DNA from: Escherichia coli
GTDB lineage: Bacteria > Pseudomonadota > Gammaproteobacteria > Enterobacterales > Enterobacteriaceae
Length of the DNA stretch: 64,000 bases
Assembly (NCBI RefSeq): GCF_044647545.1
Contig: NZ_CP172818.1
Direction: 5' to 3' (one strand)
The notes under the pieces are model-generated. The model searched no databases. It was not told the DNA's origin and was given only the letters and a program-made list of their open reading frames with translations. Positions 31,593-64,000 of this stretch are shown piece by piece (the stretch's first letter is position 1; each line of letters begins with the position of its first letter). The translations under genes and the position numbers were made by a program.

Positions 31593-31776
31593 ACGCCACC
31601 TCGCGACAGTGAACTGAAAGCCGCGTCGCAACTGCTCTTTAACAATTTATCAGACAATCTGTGTGGGCACTCGAAGATACGGATTCTTAACGTCGCAAGA
31701 CGAAAAATGAATACCAAGTCTCAAGAGTGAACACGTAATTCATTACGAAGTTTAATTCTTTGAGCATCAAACTTTT

Positions 31777-33318
<1,542 letters not shown>

Positions 33319-33386
33319 CCTTAAAGAAGCGTACTTTGCAGTGCTCACACAGATTGTCTGATGAAAATGAGCAGTAAAACCTCTAC

Positions 33387-33463
<77 letters not shown>

Positions 33464-33505
33464 AATTTGCACCGCAAATTTGAAGAGGTTTTAACTACAT
33501 GTTAT

Positions 33506-33581
33506 GGGGCTATAGCTCAGCTGGGAGAGCGCCTGCTTTGCACGCAGGAGGTCTGCGGTTCGATCCCGCATAGCTCCACCA
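33506..33581 (+). tRNA. alaV: tRNA-Ala (TGC)
   Basis: GGGGCTATAGCTCAGCTGGG...CTCCACCA, 76 nt. Confidence 0.95.
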
Positions 33582-33765
33582 TCTCTGTAGTGATTAAATA
33601 AAAAATACTTCAGAGTGTACCTGCAAAGGTTCACTGCGAAGTTTTGCTCTTTAAAAATCTGGATCAAGCTGAAAATTGAAACACTGAATAGCCGAAAGTT
33701 ATTCGTGAGTCTCTCAAATTTTCGCAACACGATGATGAATCGAAAGAAACATCTTCGGGTTGTGA

Positions 33766-36669
<2,904 letters not shown>

Positions 36670-39938: not shown

Positions 39939-40610
39939 ATGTCAGGTCTGCCACAGGGCAGACCAACGTTTGGCCCCCTTTAAAAAAAAAAAGACACCAA
40001 TACAACACAACAAAAAAAAAGCGCTGCGCAAAACGTGAGCGCGGTGGTGGCGTATGACTTATCTGCCCAAATGCTGGATGTCGTGGCACAAGCTGCCGAA
40101 GCCGGGCACCTGAAAAATATCGCCACCCGCCAGGGATATGCCGAAAGTCTGCCATTTGCCGATAACGCATTTGATATTGTTATCAGCCGTTATTCTGCCC
40201 ATCACTGGCATGATGTTGGTGCAGCACTGCGAGAAGTGAATAGGATATTGAAACCTGGCGGTAGGCTGATTGTGATGGACGTAATGTCTCCGGGTCACCC
40301 AGTGCGCGACGTCTGGTTACAGACGGTAGAAGCATTACGCGATACCTCTCACGTACGAAACTACGCCAGCGGTGAGTGGTTGACGTTAATCAATGAAGCC
40401 AATCTGATAGTTGATAATTTAATTACAGATAAGTTACCGCTGGAATTTTCTTCATGGGTCGCGAGAATGCGTACGCCAGAAGCGTTAGTAGACGCTATTC
40501 GCATTTACCAACAGAGCGCATCGACAGAGGTGAGAACGTATTTTGCCTTGCAGAATGACGGCTCTTTCACCAGTGATATCATCATGGTAGAAGCACATAA
40601 AGCGGCATAA
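39939..40610 (+). pseudogene. yafE: truncated/interrupted SAM-dependent methyltransferase
   Basis: ATG at 39939 is in frame with the methyltransferase body (GTG 40035 to stop 40610) but separated by a 48-nt A-rich tract with in-frame TAA (39981-39983); body lacks Gly-rich motif I. Confidence 0.7.
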
Positions 40611-47098: not shown

Positions 47099-47162
47099 TG
47101 AAAAATCACCAAGAAAATTAACCAGATCTCGCTCTGAACTCGTAATAAATTCTATGGTTCTG

Positions 47163-47439
47163 CTGATTTAACCGCAGAAAAGTTCGCCACAGCAATCCGA
47201 AACCACTGGCACGTGGAGAATAAGCTGCACTGGCGTCTGGACGTGGTAATGAATGAAGACGACTGCAAAATCAGCGAAAGAGGAAACGCCGCAGAATTAT
47301 TTTCAGGATACGGCGCATCGCTATTAATATTTTGACGAATGATAAGGTATTTAAGGCAGGGTTAAGACGTAAGATGCGAAAAGCAGCTATGGACAGAAAC
47401 TATCTGGCGTCAGTCCTTGCGGGGAGCGGGCTTTCGTAG
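47163..47439 (+). mobile_element. yafF: H-repeat (ISAs1-family) transposase C-terminal fragment, frameshifted
   Basis: Translation ...[40 protein letters not shown]... then, after a frame change, ...[36 protein letters not shown]. Confidence 0.75.
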
Positions 47440-52180: not shown

Positions 52181-52291
52181 GGTCTTTTCTCCCCAGGGAG
52201 AGGGCCGGGTGAGGGTAACAGCCTGCACCTTTGTACTTTTTAATCAATCTTCGCCGGGGGCCATGCGCTCCCGCTGTTGTGGAGGTTACCC

Positions 52292-55425: not shown

Positions 55426-57182
55426 GCAGGGATCTCCCCCACAACACTCAACGCCCCCATAATCTTCAACTCCAGCTCGTCCGGCACTTCGTTATACGAC
55501 AGCACATGCAGCCCCGGCGCAAACAATCTCGCATAGCGCGCCAGCAAAGGGCGCAACTGCGGTGGCACCAGCAGCACAGGGTCTTTCCCCGCCGCTTTCA
55601 TCTGCTCCTTCACCTGCGGCATCGTACTCTGGAACTGGTTGAGCATATTCGGGTCTACCGGCACGCTGTCGAGCATCACTTTGCCGGCCTGTTGCGCCTG
55701 ATTCACCACGTTGGTCAGCAGATTTTCCAGCTCATTATTCAGCGTATACACCGTCAGCTCCTGCTTGCGAACGAACGGATGGGTAATGCTGCGCCGCAGC
55801 GCCAGGCGCACATCTGCCGCCAGCAGAATATGATCTTTGGTCACCGCACTACTGGCGACCAGCACGGTGGCGATGGTGACGATATCGCGCAGGGAAACGC
55901 CTTCAGTCAGCAGCGCCCGGTACACTTTCAGCAACTGGCTGTAATTCAGCGCCGCGCTCAAATCCTCCGCCAGTCGCGGTGCCATCGACGACAGGCGGTT
56001 ATGCAACTGCGTAATATCGTCATAGTTAAATAAATCAGGAATATAGCTGCGCACAATCTTATTCACATGCGTGGCAATTACGCTGGCGCTGTCGATCACC
56101 TGATACCCCATATTCAGCGCCTTCGCTTTCTGCGCAGGCTGAATCCAGGTGACCGGCATCCCATATGCCGGGTCATTCCCCAGTACGCCGTCAATCTCGC
56201 CGTAGGTTTCGCTGGAGGGCAGGGCCATCAGTTTATCCGCCGGAATATCCGCTTCATCAGCCTTAATGCCGTTGATGAAAATGGCGTACTGGCTGGGCTT
56301 GAGACGGAAGTTTTCCCGAATACGGATCTCCGGCAGCAGCACGCCGTTACCGTCGGATATCACCTGCCGCACGCCGCGAATCCGCTGGGTGAGCGGGTTC
56401 CCCTGCGCTTTGTCCACCAGCGCCACCAGCTTGTAGCCGAGGCTTAAGCTGATGGGCTCGATCAGCGGAATGGTTTCCCAACTGACCTGTTGCTCGCTGG
56501 TTTCGGTGATGGTTCGGGTCAGCGTTTCGAGGCTTTTCTCCTCCGCCTCCGCCGCCTGCGGGCGTTTGCTCATCCGCCAGCCGGTAAAGCCAAGCAGGGC
56601 GCTGAACAGCAAAAATGGCAGATGCGGCATCCCCGGCACCACCGCCAGCACAAACATGATCCCGGTGGCGGTGTAGAGCACCGACGGACTTGCCAGCAGC
56701 TGGTGGCGCACGTCATGGGCGATATCGCCGTTGTCGCTGACGCGGGTGACGATAATTGCCGCCGCGGTGGAGAGCAGCAGGGACGGGATCTGCGCCACCA
56801 GCCCGTCGCCGATAGTCATCAGCACATATTGCTGGAAGGCGGCGTCGGCGCTCAGGTTGTATTTGAAGATCCCGATACAGACGCCGCCGATCAGGTTGAT
56901 CGCCAGAATCATCATCCCGGCGATGGCATCGCCGCGCACAAACTTCGATGCCCCGTCCATTGCGCCGTAGAAATCGGCCTCGCTGGCAACATCTTTACGC
57001 CGGGTTTGTGCCTGCGCCTGGTTGATCAATCCGGCGTTAAGATCGGCGTCAATCGCCATCTGTTTACCGGGCATCGCGTCCAGGGTAAAGCGGGCAGAAA
57101 CCTCGGAAATACGCTCGGCCCCTTTGGTGACGACGATAAAGTTGATTGTCAACAGCGTCAGTAAATCCGAGCGTGAAAGCAT
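55377..57182 (-). pseudogene. lfhA: FlhA-like flagellar export protein remnant (Flag-2 cluster), 5'-truncated
   Basis: About 600-aa ORF with FlhA-family similarity (…FVRGDAIAG…, C-terminal cytoplasmic domain) lacking the N-terminal TM region and a credible start. Confidence 0.8.
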
Positions 57183-57912
57183 TATCGCCGCGCTACACGG
57201 GCAGTCGATTTTTAACGGTGGCGGGCTGTCGCCGTTAAATAAAATCAGCCCGTCTCATCCGTCAAAACCTGCCACCGTGGCAGTGCCGGAAGAGACGGAG
57301 AAAAAAGCGCGCGACGTCAACGAGAAAACGGCGCTGCTGAAGAAGAAATCCGCCACCGAGCTTGGCGAGCTGGCGACCAGTATCAATACCATCGCCCGTG
57401 ATGCGCATATGGAAGCGAATCTGGAGATGGAGATTGTTCCCCAGGGATTACGCGTGCTGATTAAAGACGACCAGAACCGCAATATGTTCGAACGCGGCAG
57501 CGCACAGATTATGCCGTTCTTTAAAACTTTGCTGGTGGAGCTTGCGCCAGTGTTCGACTCGCTCGATAACAAAATTATTATTACCGGGCATACCGATGCG
57601 ATGGCCTACAAAAACAATATCTACAATAACTGGAACCTTTCGGGTGACCGCGCGCTTTCGGCTCGTCGGGCGCTGGAAGAGGCAGGAATGCCGGAAGATA
57701 AAGTGATGCAGGTGAGCGCAATGGCGGACCAGATGCTGCTGGACGCGAAAAATCCGCAAAGCGCGGGCAACCGGCGCATTGAGATTATGGTGCTGACTAA
57801 AAGCGCGTCCGATACGCTGTATCAATACTTTGGTCAGCATGGGGATAAAGTGGTGCAGCCGCTGGTGCAAAAGCTGGATAAGCAGCAGGTGCTTTCACAG
57901 CGAACGCGTTAA
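57157..57912 (+). pseudogene. lafU: MotB/OmpA-like flagellar motor protein remnant (Flag-2 cluster), 5'-truncated
   Basis: C-terminal OmpA-like domain (NWNLSGDRALSARRALEEAG...NRRIEIMVL); no N-terminal TM segment or start codon; 5' boundary approximate. Confidence 0.7.
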
Positions 57913-57948
57913 ATGCTGAATCTTTACGCATTTCTCAAACTCTGAAAT

Positions 57949-57968
57949 CACTGTATACTTTACCAGTG
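57949..57968 (+). promoter_or_regulatory. LexA operator (SOS box) of dinB
   Basis: CACTGTATACTTTACCAGTG about 15 nt upstream of the dinB start. Confidence 0.8.
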
Positions 57969-57982
57969 TTGAGAGGTGAGCA

Positions 57983-59038
57983 ATGCGTAAAATCATTCAT
58001 GTGGATATGGACTGCTTTTTCGCAGCGGTGGAGATGCGCGACAATCCCGCCCTGCGCGATATCCCTATTGCTATTGGCGGCAGCCGCGAACGTCGGGGGG
58101 TGATCAGCACCGCCAATTATCCCGCGCGTAAATTTGGCGTACGCAGCGCTATGCCGACAGGGATGGCGCTCAAATTATGCCCACATCTCACGCTGCTTCC
58201 AGGGCGCTTTGACGCCTACAAAGAAGCCTCAAATCATATCCGCGAAATTTTCTCGCGCTATACCTCGCGCATTGAACCGTTATCACTGGATGAAGCCTAT
58301 CTCGACGTCACCGATAGTGTGCATTGCCACGGTTCTGCGACCCTCATCGCCCAGGAAATCCGTCAGACGATCTTTAACGAGCTGCAACTGACGGCATCTG
58401 CGGGCGTTGCGCCGGTAAAGTTTCTCGCCAAAATTGCTTCCGACATGAATAAACCCAACGGTCAGTTTGTGATTACGCCGGCAGAAGTTCCGGCATTTCT
58501 GCAAACCTTACCGCTGGCAAAAATTCCCGGCGTCGGCAAAGTCTCGGCGGCAAAACTGGAAGCGATGGGGCTGCGGACCTGCGGTGATGTGCAAAAGTGT
58601 GATCTGGTGACTCTGCTCAAACGTTTTGGCAAATTTGGCCGCATTTTGTGGGAGCGTAGTCAGGGGATTGACGAGCGCGACGTTAACAGCGAGCGGTTGC
58701 GAAAATCCGTCGGCGTGGAACGCACGATGGCGGAAGATATTCATCACTGGTCTGAATGTGAAGCGATTATCGAGCTGCTGTATCCTGAACTTGAACGCCG
58801 TCTGGCAAAGGTAAAACCTGATTTACTGATTGCTCGCCAGGGGGTGAAATTAAAGTTCGACGATTTTCAGCAAACTACTCAGGAGCACGTCTGGCCGCGG
58901 CTGAATAAAGCTGATCTGATCGCCACCGCGCGTAAAACCTGGGATGAACGTCGCGGCGGGCGCGGTGTGCGACTGGTGGGGCTGCATGTGACGTTGCTTG
59001 ACCCTCAAATGGAAAGACAACTGGTGCTGGGATTATGA
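57983..59038 (+). CDS. dinB: DNA polymerase IV (Y-family translesion polymerase)
   Basis: 351-aa [25 protein letters not shown]. Confidence 0.95.
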
Positions 59039-59089
59039 TGTATACTATTATGTATATTCTGATGTTCATTATTATGAGGGGATCACTGT

Positions 59090-59383
59090 ATGCATCGAAT
59101 TCTCGCTGAAAAATCGGTCAATATCACTGAGTTACGTAAAAACCCAGCTAAATACTTTATTGATCAACCGGTTGCGGTTCTTTCTAATAATCGCCCCGCA
59201 GGATATCTCTTAAGTGCCAGCGCATTTGAAGCGTTAATGGACATGCTTGCTGAACAAGAGGAGAAAAAACTGGTTAAGGCGCGCTTCCGTCCGAGTGCCG
59301 CAAGATTAGAGGAAATTACACGCCGCGCTGAACAATATCTTAATGATATGACGGATGATGATTTCAATGACTTTAAGGAATAA
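59090..59383 (+). CDS. yafN: YafN antitoxin
   Basis: 97-aa ORF; Phd/YefM-like; precedes yafO. Confidence 0.88.
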   Translation: MHRILAEKSVNITELRKNPAKYFIDQPVAVLSNNRPAGYLLSASAFEALMDMLAEQEEKKLVKARFRPSAARLEEITRRAEQYLNDMTDDDFNDFKE

Positions 59384-59385
59384 GG

Positions 59386-59784
59386 ATGCGGGTATTCAAA
59401 ACAAAACTTATTCGCCTGCAACTTACAGCAGAGGAACTTGATGCGTTAACAGCGGATTTTATTTCCTATAAGCGTGACGGTGTTTTGCCAGATATATTTG
59501 GTCGCGATGCACTCTACGACGACTCGTTTACCTGGCCATTAATCAAATTTGAGCGAGTTGCTCATATTCATCTGGCAAATGTGAATAATCCATTTCCGCC
59601 ACAGTTGCGCCAATTCAGCAGAACGAATGACGAAGCGCATTTGGTATATTGTCAGGGTGCGTTTGATGAGCAAGCATGGTTGCTCATTGCCATTCTGAAA
59701 CCTGAACCTCATAAACTGGCTCGAGATAACAACCAAATGCATAAAATTGGGAAAATGGCAGAAGCGTTTCGCATGCGTTTTTGA
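59386..59784 (+). CDS. yafO: YafO ribosome-dependent mRNA interferase toxin
   Basis: 132-aa ORF MRVFKTKLIRLQLTAEELDALTADF. Confidence 0.88.
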   Translation: MRVFKTKLIRLQLTAEELDALTADFISYKRDGVLPDIFGRDALYDDSFTWPLIKFERVAHIHLANVNNPFPPQLRQFSRTNDEAHLVYCQGAFDEQAWLLIAILKPEPHKLARDNNQMHKIGKMAEAFRMRF

Positions 59785-59793
59785 ATTTATATT

Positions 59794-60246
59794 ATGAATA
59801 ACATACAAATAAGAAACTATCAGCCTGGCGATTTTCAGCAACTATGCGCTATTTTCCTTAGAGCGGTTACGATGACCGCCAGTCAGCATTATTCACCACA
59901 ACAAATTGCCGCCTGGGCGCAGATTGACGAATCTCGCTGGAAGGAGAAACTCGCGAAATCACAAGTGCGGGTTGCAGTTATTAATGCACAACCGGTTGGT
60001 TTTATTACCCGCATTGAACATTATATCGATATGTTATTTGTTGAACCTGAATACACCCGACGCGGGGTTGCCAGCGCTTTGTTAAAACCATTGATTAAGT
60101 CTGAATCCGAACTTACGGTGGACGCCAGCATAACCGCAAAGCCCTTTTTTGAACGTTATGGTTTTCAGACAGTTAAGCAGCAGTGCGTTGAATGCCGGGG
60201 AGAGTGGTTTACTAATTTTTATATGCGATATAAACCGCAACATTAA
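59794..60246 (+). CDS. yafP: GNAT-family N-acetyltransferase
   Basis: 150-aa ORF; acetyl-CoA-binding motif RRGVASALL. Confidence 0.88.
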   Translation: MNNIQIRNYQPGDFQQLCAIFLRAVTMTASQHYSPQQIAAWAQIDESRWKEKLAKSQVRVAVINAQPVGFITRIEHYIDMLFVEPEYTRRGVASALLKPLIKSESELTVDASITAKPFFERYGFQTVKQQCVECRGEWFTNFYMRYKPQH

Positions 60247-60424
60247 ATCCAGCTTGCAATGAAAATAACGCCCGCCTAGTATGTGTGCGTTTTCTTATTC
60301 CACAAACTGCAAGGAGGTAAATCATGACAAATCCTTTATCAATGACTCTTTGCAGACCTTTCCAGGATTAATTCTTTTTTTCTTGCCCTGGATTCGTCTG
60401 CCATTTCCTGATTTTTATTCATAA

Positions 60425-60691
60425 ATGGAATGGTACATGGGCAAATATATTCGTCCCTTATCCGATGCGGTATTTACCATCGCATCTGATGACCTGTGGA
60501 TCGAGAGTTTAGCGATCCAACAATTACACACCACGGCAAATTTACCCAACATGCAACGCGTAGTAGGGATGCCAGATTTACATCCCGGACGCGGCTATCC
60601 GATTGGCGCAGCGTTCTTCTCCGTAGGCCGTTTTTACCCGGCAAGACGTCGCGGTAACGGTGCTGGAAACAGAAACGGGTCGCTACTCTGA
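60425..60691 (+). pseudogene. ykfJ: RtcB-like RNA ligase N-terminal fragment
   Basis: 88-aa ORF with RtcB-type motif GMPDLHPGRGYPIGAAF, then terminates; overlaps prfH. Confidence 0.7.
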
Positions 60692-61160
60692 CACACTGCG
60701 TTCGGCGCTGATTTCTCTGGATGGCGATAACGCATGGGCTCTAAGCGAAAGCTGGTGTGGCACTATCCAGTGGATTTGTCCGAGTCCGTATCGGCCTCAT
60801 CATGGGCGCAAAAACTGGTTTCTGGGCATTGGGCGTTTTACCGCTGATGAGCAGGAACAATCCGACGCGATCCGTTATGAGACGCTGCGTTCGTCGGGGC
60901 CGGGCGGTCAACATGTCAATAAAACCGACTCGGCGGTACGCGCCACGCATCTGGCATCCGGTATTAGCGTGAAGGTTCAGTCAGAGCGCAGTCAGCATGC
61001 TAACAAACGGCTGGCGCGATTACTGATTGCCTGGAAGCTGGAACAACAGCAACAGGAAAATAGCGCGGCGCTGAAATCGCAGCGGCGAATGTTCCATCAT
61101 CAAATTGAACGTGGCAATCCGCGACGGATATTTACCGGGATGGCTTTTGTTGCTGTGTAA
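60660..61160 (+). CDS. prfH: peptide chain release factor homolog RF-H (likely N-terminally truncated)
   Basis: 166-aa ORF with GGQ motif ([20 protein letters not shown]). Confidence 0.85.
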
Positions 61161-61580
61161 TTGAAGAATGAAACTCCCGCCGTTTTCTATATGAAAGCGC
61201 GCGCAAAACGAAAGAATCTCATTTTATCTCTCTTCCCTTTTTTTGATAAATCTTTCTTGTAGAACTTCTGTTGCTTCATCGCGCCGGTTTTTGGCTTAGT
61301 TTGGCCATTCGCCCGTTTTTGATCTTTTTGGCGTCGGGTGGTAACGCCAAACTCACTTTTTCCTCTTAGGCATAATATGGTTTGTCCGCCGGGGGGCTAG
61401 TTTTGGGCGGAAAAGAGAAAAACCCTTTCCAAATTGTTTTTCGACTGCGATCTGGGTCTTTCGGTAACACTTTCCTACATAGGTATTTTTTTTTTATTTT
61501 TAAAAAAAAAAAAAATCAAAAAAAGATAGCCATTGGCTTCAAACAGAAGTCCACGCCCGCAGGCGTGGACATTATCGTAA

Positions 61581-63038
61581 TTACTTCGCCGGAATTTCTT
61601 TCAGCAGTTCAGTCAGCAGTGTCCAGTAATGGCCTACGCTTTCGATGTGAACTTGCTCATCCGGAGAGTGTGGACCGGTGATTGTTGGCCCGATAGAAAC
61701 CATGTCCATTTCCGGATACGGTTTTTTGAACAGACCACATTCCAGGCCCGCGTGGATAATCTGGATGTTCGGCGTCTTGTTGAACAGACGCTGATAGGTT
61801 TCACGTACCAGATGCATCACCGGAGAATTAGCGTCCGGCTGCCAGCCAGGATATGCGCCTTTCGCTTCGGTTTTCGCGCCAGCCAGTTTACCCAGCGAAT
61901 CCAGCATGCTCACCACGTAGTCTTTACCGCTGTCGATCAGTGAACGGATCAGGCAGTGAATTTCTACGTTATTGTCAGTCATGGTCACCACACCGACGTT
62001 CAGGGAGGTTTCGACCACACCTTTTGCAACGTCGGAATTGCGGATCACACCGTTCGGGGTGGCGTTCAGCAGACGAATAAAGGTATCGCGAGATTTCGCA
62101 ATCAGGGCAGCTTTATCGTTCGCAACAGAGTCCAGCAGCAATGCCAGATTTTTCTCTTTCTCTGCCAGCTCGTTTTTCAGGATCTCCTGATAGGTATTCA
62201 CCAGAGATTTCAGTGTATCGACTTTATCAGCTGCGACAGCAATGGTCGCAAAGGCTTCACGCGGGATGGCGTTACGCAGTGTGCCGCCGTTGAAATCAAT
62301 AAGACGCAGGTCCAGTTCTTCTGCATGACCCGCCAGGAAGCGCACCAGCAGTTTGTTGGCATTACCCAGGCCAACGTGGATTTCACCGCCGGAGTGACCG
62401 CCTTTCAGACCTTTTAAGGTTAACTTGAAGGTTTCAAAACCAGCTGGAACCGCTTCACGATCTAAATGCAGGTTGGAGGTGAAGTCGATACCTCCCGCAC
62501 AACCCATGTAGATTTCACCTTCTTCTTCGGAGTCGGTGTTAATCAGAATATCAGCCTGCAACCAGTTGCTCTGTAAGCCAAAAGCACCGTCCATACCGGC
62601 TTCTTCGGTCATGGTCAGCAGCACTTCCAGCGGGCCGTGAACCACGTTTTCGTCAGCCAGAACCGCCAGTGCAGAGGCCATACCAATGCCGTTATCCGCA
62701 CCCAGCGTGGTGCCGCGTGCTTTAACCCATTCGCCATCAATATAAGGCTGGATAGGATCTTTAGTGAAGTCATGCACGGTGTCGTTATTTTTTTGCGGCA
62801 CCATATCGAGGTGGGCCTGCAAGACGACCGGTTTACGATTTTCCATACCTGCGGTAGCAGGTTTACGAATCAGGATATTACCTACCTGATCGCGTTCGAC
62901 ATGGAAACCTTTCTCTTTTGCCCAACCAACAATGTATTCAGCGAGTTGCTCTTCATGATAGGACGGGTGAGGAATAGAACAGATTTTGGCAAAAATATCC
63001 CACAGCGGCTGTGGAGATAATTGAGACAGTTCAGACAC
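61581..63038 (-). CDS. pepD: cytosol nonspecific dipeptidase (aminoacyl-histidine dipeptidase)
   Basis: 485-aa ORF MSELSQLSPQPLWDIFAKICSIPHPSYHEEQ; M20 family. Confidence 0.95.
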   Translation of the reverse strand: MSELSQLSPQPLWDIFAKICSIPHPSYHEEQLAEYIVGWAKEKGFHVERDQVGNILIRKPATAGMENRKPVVLQAHLDMVPQKNNDTVHDFTKDPIQPYIDGEWVKARGTTLGADNGIGMASALAVLADENVVHGPLEVLLTMTEEAGMDGAFGLQSNWLQADILINTDSEEEGEIYMGCAGGIDFTSNLHLDREAVPAGFETFKLTLKGLKGGHSGGEIHVGLGNANKLLVRFLAGHAEELDLRLIDFNGGTLRNAIPREAFATIAVAADKVDTLKSLVNTYQEILKNELAEKEKNLALLLDSVANDKAALIAKSRDTFIRLLNATPNGVIRNSDVAKGVVETSLNVGVVTMTDNNVEIHCLIRSLIDSGKDYVVSMLDSLGKLAGAKTEAKGAYPGWQPDANSPVMHLVRETYQRLFNKTPNIQIIHAGLECGLFKKPYPEMDMVSIGPTITGPHSPDEQVHIESVGHYWTLLTELLKEIPAK

Positions 63039-63298
63039 GTTAAGTCTCCTTGTCGATCACCCGCAAAACAGTATTGCAGGTCACAGGGTTAGCAGAAAAT
63101 GTTGTCAACACAAGACAGGCTTGCGAGATATGTTTGAGAATACCACTTTATCCCGCGTCAGGGAGAGGCAGTGCGTAAAAAGACGCGGACTCATGTGAAA
63201 TACTGGTTTTTAGTGCGCCAGATCTCTATAATCTCGCGCAACCTATTTTCCCCTCGAACACTTTTTAAGCCGTAGATAAACAGGCTGGGACACTTCAC

Positions 63299-63757
63299 AT
63301 GAGCGAAAAATACATCGTCACCTGGGACATGTTGCAGATCCATGCACGTAAACTCGCAAGCCGACTGATGCCTTCTGAACAATGGAAAGGCATTATTGCC
63401 GTAAGCCGTGGCGGTCTGGTACCGGGTGCGTTACTGGCGCGTGAACTGGGTATTCGTCATGTCGATACCGTTTGTATTTCCAGCTACGATCACGACAACC
63501 AGCGCGAGCTTAAAGTGCTGAAACGCGCAGAAGGCGATGGCGAAGGCTTCATCGTTATTGATGACCTGGTAGATACCGGTGGTACTGCGGTTGCGATTCG
63601 TGAAATGTATCCAAAAGCGCACTTTGTCACCATCTTCGCAAAACCGGCTGGTCGTCCGCTGGTTGATGACTATGTTGTTGATATCCCGCAAGATACCTGG
63701 ATTGAACAGCCGTGGGATATGGGCGTCGTATTCGTCCCGCCAATCTCCGGTCGCTAA
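63299..63757 (+). CDS. gpt: xanthine-guanine phosphoribosyltransferase
   Basis: 152-aa [27 protein letters not shown] motif [11 protein letters not shown]. Confidence 0.95.
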
Positions 63758-63848
63758 TCTTTTCAACGCCTGGCATTGCCGGGCGTTGTTCTTTTTAACT
63801 TCAGGCGGGTTACAATAGTTTCCAGTAAGTATTCTGGAGGCTGCATCC

Positions 63849-64000
63849 ATGACACAGGCAAACCTGAGCGAAACCCTGTTCAAACCCCGCTTTAAACATC
63901 CTGAAACCTCGACGCTAGTCCGCCGCTTTAATCACGGCGCACAACCGCCTGTGCAGTCGGCCCTTGATGGTAAAACCATCCCTCACTGGTATCGCATGAT
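63849..64000 (+). CDS. frsA: esterase FrsA, 5' end only (runs off the window)
   Basis: ATG at 63849; [27 protein letters not shown]. Confidence 0.8.

Follow-up and report, generated by a model that had tools for sequence, protein, structure and literature searches.

What is the low-complexity sequence that separates prfH from pepD in the 64,000-nt stretch of DNA analysed here (the window)? The prfH gene is a truncated ORF of 166 codons on the plus strand (60660-61160; 99.8-100% identical to E. coli FDAARGOS_497). The intact pepD gene (485 codons, minus strand, 61581-63038; the exact protein was found on at least 1000 contigs) has its stop codon at 61581-61583, leaving a convergent spacer of 420 bp (61161-61580) between the two. 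The first-pass annotation had described this spacer as low-complexity, had supposed that its K-12 counterpart is much shorter, and had considered an insertion remnant, a decayed gene or an assembly artefact as its origin. The features it described are indeed present, and the spacer in K-12 measures 56 bp. The homopolymer block consists of T10 (61486-61495), A, T5, A14 (61502-61515), TC and A7 (61518-61524), as previously described except that the long A run is 14 and not 13 nt, and runs of at least 9 nt occur elsewhere in the 64 kb only as the A11 and A9 at 39982-40020, within the yafE tract to which the first-pass annotation had already confined them. The spacer contains only short ORFs, ARAGORN detected no tRNA in it, and its best score against the Rfam covariance models was 18.6 bits, obtained with an unrelated Drosophila family and to be compared with a gathering score of 62, in agreement with the earlier statement that the sequence outside the pepD palindrome holds no convincing ORF or tRNA/sRNA-like structure. 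Readings of the spacer as a small RNA, a tRNA or a promoter were rejected.

A longer interval at the same position was identified in 329 of the 5,426 complete E. coli genomes, among them FDAARGOS_497 (NZ_CP033850.1 2635786-2636662), where 877 bp lie between prfH and pepD and carry a 510-bp gene annotated as 'metal-dependent hydrolase' (169 codons, plus strand) and a 282-bp hypothetical ORF (93 codons, minus strand). The hydrolase product matches the Pfam family YdjM (PF04307), an assignment that rests on precomputed Pfam hits, and no NCBIfam name was matched by either of the two island proteins. In 326 of the 329 genomes at least 80% of the interval is matched at 90-100% identity, and natural alleles have nucleotide divergences of up to about 5-10% while keeping their length (875-877 nt in the full-length matches listed). 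Each of the 23 contigs read in which the exact 166-aa PrfH fragment is encoded has an intact YdjM gene as well as the small ORF (called at 80-93 aa). Over shared sequence the window matches FDAARGOS_497 at 99.93-100% identity along its whole length, and at this locus the left flank (57687-60643) is 100% identical to the relatives L005 and L006 over 2957 nt and the right flank (61524-64000) to L001, L005, L006 and L008 over 2477 nt. The divergence time between the window and these relatives is therefore essentially zero.

The spacer of the window has the same position and identical flanks as the FDAARGOS_497-type interval, but is 420 instead of 877 nt long and retains no ORF. Its outer ends match the intact interval closely; the first 38 nt (61161-61198, intergenic sequence 3' of prfH on the plus strand, aligned to L001 3062-3098) are near-identical to it, and the last 57 nt (61524-61580, minus strand) are 100% identical to the relatives and comprise the first 49 nt of the 93-codon ORF (ATG at 61572-61570) together with the spacer to the pepD stop codon. 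Between these ends, 61199-61400 (plus strand) is collinear with L001 3099-3354 and corresponds to a leader and the first ~230 nt of the YdjM-family hydrolase gene in apparently corrupted form, and 40-nt blocks over 61161-61400 map in order to L001 3062-3354 with z values of 2.1 to 10.9 relative to shuffles. The following stretch, 61401-61485 (plus strand), is more heavily collapsed, and block-wise alignment traced part of it to the hydrolase gene, with 61441-61480 still in the same order and mapping to L001 3436-3503 (z = 3.8) and 61401-61440 giving no significant match to L001 in the shuffle test. The homopolymer block at 61486-61524 likewise has no counterpart in L001 by this test (z = -1.8), and this filler occupies the place of ~380 nt that in the intact interval cover the hydrolase gene's 3' end and the greater part of the 93-codon ORF. 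The start codon of the hydrolase gene is destroyed at about 61221-61223, and no reading frame survives. These alignments indicate that the tract descends from the accessory two-gene interval of YdjM-family hydrolase and 93-codon ORF. Genuine in the spacer are the 38 nt that follow prfH, its last 57 nt and the terminator hairpin of pepD discussed below.

The way in which the traceable part differs from the intact interval is unusual for a decaying gene. Window positions 61181-61400 align to 275 reference nt with 200 matches, 69 deletions, 14 insertions and 6 substitutions, i.e., 83 indels against 6 substitutions (14:1), and roughly one in four reference bases is missing; G was lost most often and T least often, and A-to-T changes extend T runs. 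The dropout rate jumps after ~40 nt and then stays roughly flat at 25-40% until the alignment is lost, so that a strict 5'-to-3' gradient in quality was only partly borne out, and identity returns abruptly to 100% at 61524. The flanks show 0 differences in 5434 nt, as opposed to 89 edits in the 275 nt of the tract, and because of these difference-free flanks far fewer than one change would be expected in 275 nt. In natural decay, substitutions outnumber indels; the tract is collinear with an intact gene at the same locus, as a pseudogene would be, but neither its amount of divergence, when set against that of the flanks, nor its mutation spectrum is that of natural decay. The octamer TTTTKGGC, which occurs six times in the window with three copies inside 61288-61408, was rejected as a repeat motif. 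The first two of these three sites read GGTTATTGGC and TCTTTTCTGGTGC in the intact relatives and the third aligns loosely, and at least two of the three copies thus arise from differing underlying sequences through A-to-T changes and dropouts. The cluster, which is absent from the intact relatives, appears to be a by-product of corruption.

Megablast and blastn searches did not recover the spacer tract from any of 5426 complete E. coli genomes, an exact 45-mer of it was not found in the GTDB representative genomes or the JGI metagenomes, and the tract had no match in plasmids or phages. The first-pass annotation had named an identical spacer in K-12 or in other E. coli genomes as the observation that would make this ordinary intergenic sequence, and no such spacer was found among the 5426 complete genomes. 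Nor did these genomes, the GTDB representatives or the JGI metagenomes reveal related genomes sharing the tract or any intermediate state on the way to it. A relic that had accumulated 89 events should be common to other genomes, yet it is absent from the collections searched, which argues against evolutionary decay. A tract present in a single record and bordered by flanks identical to those of other records is what would be expected of an artefact, and its uniqueness argues for corruption rather than novelty.

Errors of this kind are also present at other, unrelated sites of the window. At 39975-40020 (plus strand), a segment of ~217 nt in relatives that spans the yafD-yafE spacer and the 5' end of yafE has shrunk to 46 nt containing A11 and A9, a sequence present in no complete genome searched. 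Positions 39965-40012 form a perfect subsequence of FDAARGOS_497 (48 matches and 23 deletions, with 0 substitutions and 0 insertions), degradation is immediate and not gradual, and exact sequence resumes after the tract at CGCTGCGCAAAACG. This tract sits exactly on the junction of the K-12 yafE deletion, which is marked by a CGCTGC direct repeat, and removes the yafE start codon; the exact 191-aa YafE fragment was found solely on a Logan contig, where a simple frameshift is present. At 55427-55445, ~107 nt of hairpin-rich intergenic sequence of FDAARGOS_497 are reduced to ~20 nt, and the junction is a mix that matches neither FDAARGOS_497 nor K-12, in which this is the rayT site. Micro-dropouts relative to FDAARGOS_497 were additionally observed at 824, where G5 is reduced to G1, and at 52194-52207, where the hairpin loop TTT and one G are lost, and K-12 carries a different intergenic insert at both of these sites.

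A three-way comparison of the window, FDAARGOS_497 and K-12 revealed that all non-SNP differences between the window and FDAARGOS_497 fall at structural breakpoints between K-12 and FDAARGOS_497, save two single-base indels at 33699 (rRNA operon) and 46550 (T run). Of the eight breakpoints that the region contains, seven are affected, namely the pyrH-frr spacer (824), the K-12 yafE 5' deletion, the 23.5-kb T6SS island of FDAARGOS_497, which the window lacks, the lpcA-yafJ spacer (52194-52207), the rayT site (55427-55445), the K-12 junction of a 1018-bp rtcB-prfH deletion, and the prfH-pepD interval. This co-location is suggestive but not proof, as hypervariable intergenic sites would tend to coincide between any two strains. 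The rrnH operon (31679-34081) differs from FDAARGOS_497 at five positions, three of which agree with K-12 while two are unique to the window, and this fits either differences among rRNA copies or a consensus in which several copies were collapsed.

At two of the affected breakpoints the window carries a K-12-like arrangement. The clean 1018-bp deletion that left the truncated prfH lies between copies of the imperfect 9-bp repeat TACCCGRCA (60635-60643) and matches the ykfJ/prfH junction of K-12. No natural contig examined combined this truncation with a background 100% identical to strains whose operon is intact, and the exact RtcB fragment was found in K-12-like alleles that are only about 95% identical to the window; the deletion is either an independent recurrence or a further structural error of the record. 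The site of the T6SS island (47162-47420) is occupied, as in K-12, by a 260-nt 3' fragment of an ISAs1-family transposase gene, which is at most 96.8% identical to any of the 5426 complete genomes between flanks that are ~100% FDAARGOS-like. It is 95-97% identical to known copies, mostly through substitutions, and ~5% off K-12, and its divergence looks natural.

At the prfH-pepD interval itself, K-12 and the window have the same flanking genes and the same rtcB-prfH truncation, and traces of K-12 are visible at the nucleotide level. Positions 61165-61173 are a blend, in which all four differences from FDAARGOS_497 are K-12 bases and the neighbouring diagnostic bases are FDAARGOS-like. The corrupted tract is moreover bracketed by two 8-mers specific to the K-12 spacer, ATGAAACT at 61168 and AAATCAAA at 61513, which is suggestive only, as at least one shared 8-mer was obtained in 15% of shuffles. 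On the other hand, the K-12 spacer has a REP-like hairpin of its own (CTGCCGGAAGGCG...CGCCATCCGGCAG) that is missing from the window, and the window has island-specific sequence at both ends of the spacer. The combination of FDAARGOS_497-like sequence with K-12-like structure at most breakpoints raises the suspicion of a reference-guided record or a mixed-haplotype consensus.

We consider it very probable that 61199-61523 is a corrupted, half-length rendering of the 877-bp interval, which probably arose when a consensus was built across a structural difference. The source consensus would have been computed either on a backbone without the island, such as a K-12-like one, or from mixed reads with and without it. 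In each insertion column a base would then be voted on against a gap and weakly supported bases would be dropped, and such column voting would yield a subsequence that is near-perfect and has hardly any substitutions. Where insertions are long, only the parts near their anchors would be rebuilt, whereas their middle would never be reconstructed and would be replaced by low-complexity fill. A consensus of this kind would account for the error spectrum, the positions of the errors, the perfect flanks and the uniqueness of the tract. Collapsed or error-laden consensus at insertion sites is a known class of artefact in draft, reference-guided and long-read-polished assemblies, and the window resembles it in that its errors are indel-dominated, deletion-biased and smoothed into homopolymers, and in that the tract is confined to structural-variant sites, with perfect flanks and in one record only; the specific type of artefact proposed here is a deduction, and the pipeline is uncertain. 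Of the origins listed by the first-pass annotation, an artefact is thus favoured, and its suggestion of a decayed gene holds for the gene origin of the tract but not for evolutionary decay, against which stand the 14:1 excess of indels, the identical flanks, the uniqueness and the recurrence at other sites.

Some observations do not fit the consensus model well. The last 54 island-specific nt (61524-61577) are perfect although K-12 does not contain them, which counts against a K-12 backbone, as does the natural-looking divergence of the ISAs1 fragment, and the flat dropout without a clean gradient counts against the model as such. A simple consensus with K-12 itself as the reference was rejected, given that the window lacks the K-12 hairpin and that its ISAs1 fragment is ~5% off K-12.

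The main technical rival is that a coverage gap was bridged by the low-quality tail of one read, or by a long read left uncorrected, with no divergent backbone or mixed haplotypes involved. Such a filler would explain the perfect left edge, the onset of errors at 61199, the homopolymer junk at the end and the abrupt return of good sequence at 61524, and indel-dominated, deletion-biased errors are also typical of poor base calls. However, a poor read leaves unexplained that all five dropout sites coincide with K-12/FDAARGOS breakpoints and that K-12-like bases are found at 61165-61173, and the yafE tract degrades at once and not gradually, and we therefore regard this origin as possible but unlikely. 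An origin in silico, with the window deliberately degraded or filled in by a model, appears improbable. The yafE tract, being a perfect subsequence without substitutions, would be compatible with it, as would the drift into homopolymers followed by exact re-synchronisation and the association of K-12-like structure with a 100% FDAARGOS_497 background seen in no natural contig examined, but a public contig is listed as encoding two proteins specific to the window, a truncated ORF of 95 aa and the RtcB fragment of 84 aa, which suggests a real record.

A genuine strain-specific relic, in which the YdjM-family gene and its neighbour ORF decayed in situ by many small deletions, is very improbable in our view and close to refuted. 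Bacterial genomes have a known deletional bias, the tract is collinear with the intact genes, and natural partial versions of the 877-bp interval do exist in three complete genomes, all of which could be counted in favour of a relic. Against it stand the 89 edits next to unchanged flanks, the excess of indels over substitutions, the absence of the tract from every other genome searched and the recurrence of one signature at unrelated loci within the 64 kb. Harder still to credit is that the tracts at the spacer, yafE and 55427-55445 are real scars, in which part of a gene was overwritten by an extremely error-prone copy that ended in A/T runs and recombined back at its own locus, for example cDNA derived from a polyadenylated 5' decay fragment of the local plus-strand transcript, or a catastrophic error-prone repair patch. 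Both main tracts do start within the 5' leader of a gene on the plus strand and run out into A-rich stretches of that strand, as such a scar would predict, but the main feature would be left unexplained, because we know of no polymerase that drops a quarter of its template bases. A foreign insertion (MITE, IS remnant, other mobile-element scar or small-RNA gene) has a negligible probability, since, although the spacer is low-complexity, AT-rich and far longer than in K-12, its first 240 nt are demonstrably local island sequence whose collinear alignment to the resident island refutes this origin, there is no Rfam or tRNA match, the inverted repeats other than the pepD hairpin are T-run/A-run or other low-complexity pairings only, and searches of E. 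coli genomes, plasmids and phages yielded no second copy.

Within the genuine right end of the spacer, the palindrome next to the pepD stop codon had been proposed as the terminator of this gene, quoted in its minus-strand reading, and our analysis supports this proposal. On the minus strand, 61549-61570 reads GTCCACGCC-TGCG-GGCGTGGAC and is followed by the tail TTCTGTTTGA; the hairpin begins 11 nt past the stop codon and has a 9-bp stem with 7 G-C pairs and a loop of 4. It scores as a terminator-like site and has a folding energy of -19.9 kcal/mol (z = -3.4), and the element is 100% conserved in the island-carrying relatives. With a G+C-rich stem-loop, a T-rich tail and a position just 3' of a stop codon, it has the characteristics of an intrinsic (Rho-independent) terminator, supporting its designation as a genuine, putative terminator of pepD. 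The 93-codon ORF annotated in the intact relatives (minus strand; L001 3649-3930) starts inside this hairpin, with its ATG at 61572-61570, and its annotation is therefore doubtful; since the 93-aa hypothetical protein had no match in NCBIfam or Pfam, the ORF may even be spurious.

In conclusion, the prfH-pepD spacer of the window is best understood as a data artefact laid over an ordinary accessory two-gene interval and not as a real feature. A scan that flags it as a new element, a decayed gene or a MITE would chase a corrupted consensus, and the value of the finding lies in data hygiene. The record misrepresents at least three loci, the prfH-pepD interval, yafD-yafE and the rayT site, and may also misrepresent larger structure, i.e., the missing T6SS island and the rtcB-prfH truncation. 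The latter concerns RtcB2-PrfH, a module for the rescue and repair of ribosomes that confers protection against colicin E3; K-12 has a truncated operon, and strains such as ATCC25922 have an intact one (PMC9223846; PMC9304027). Unless backed by reads, gene-content calls based on this record are not to be trusted, be it the loss of the YdjM-family gene, of the yafE start or of a functional RtcB2-PrfH.
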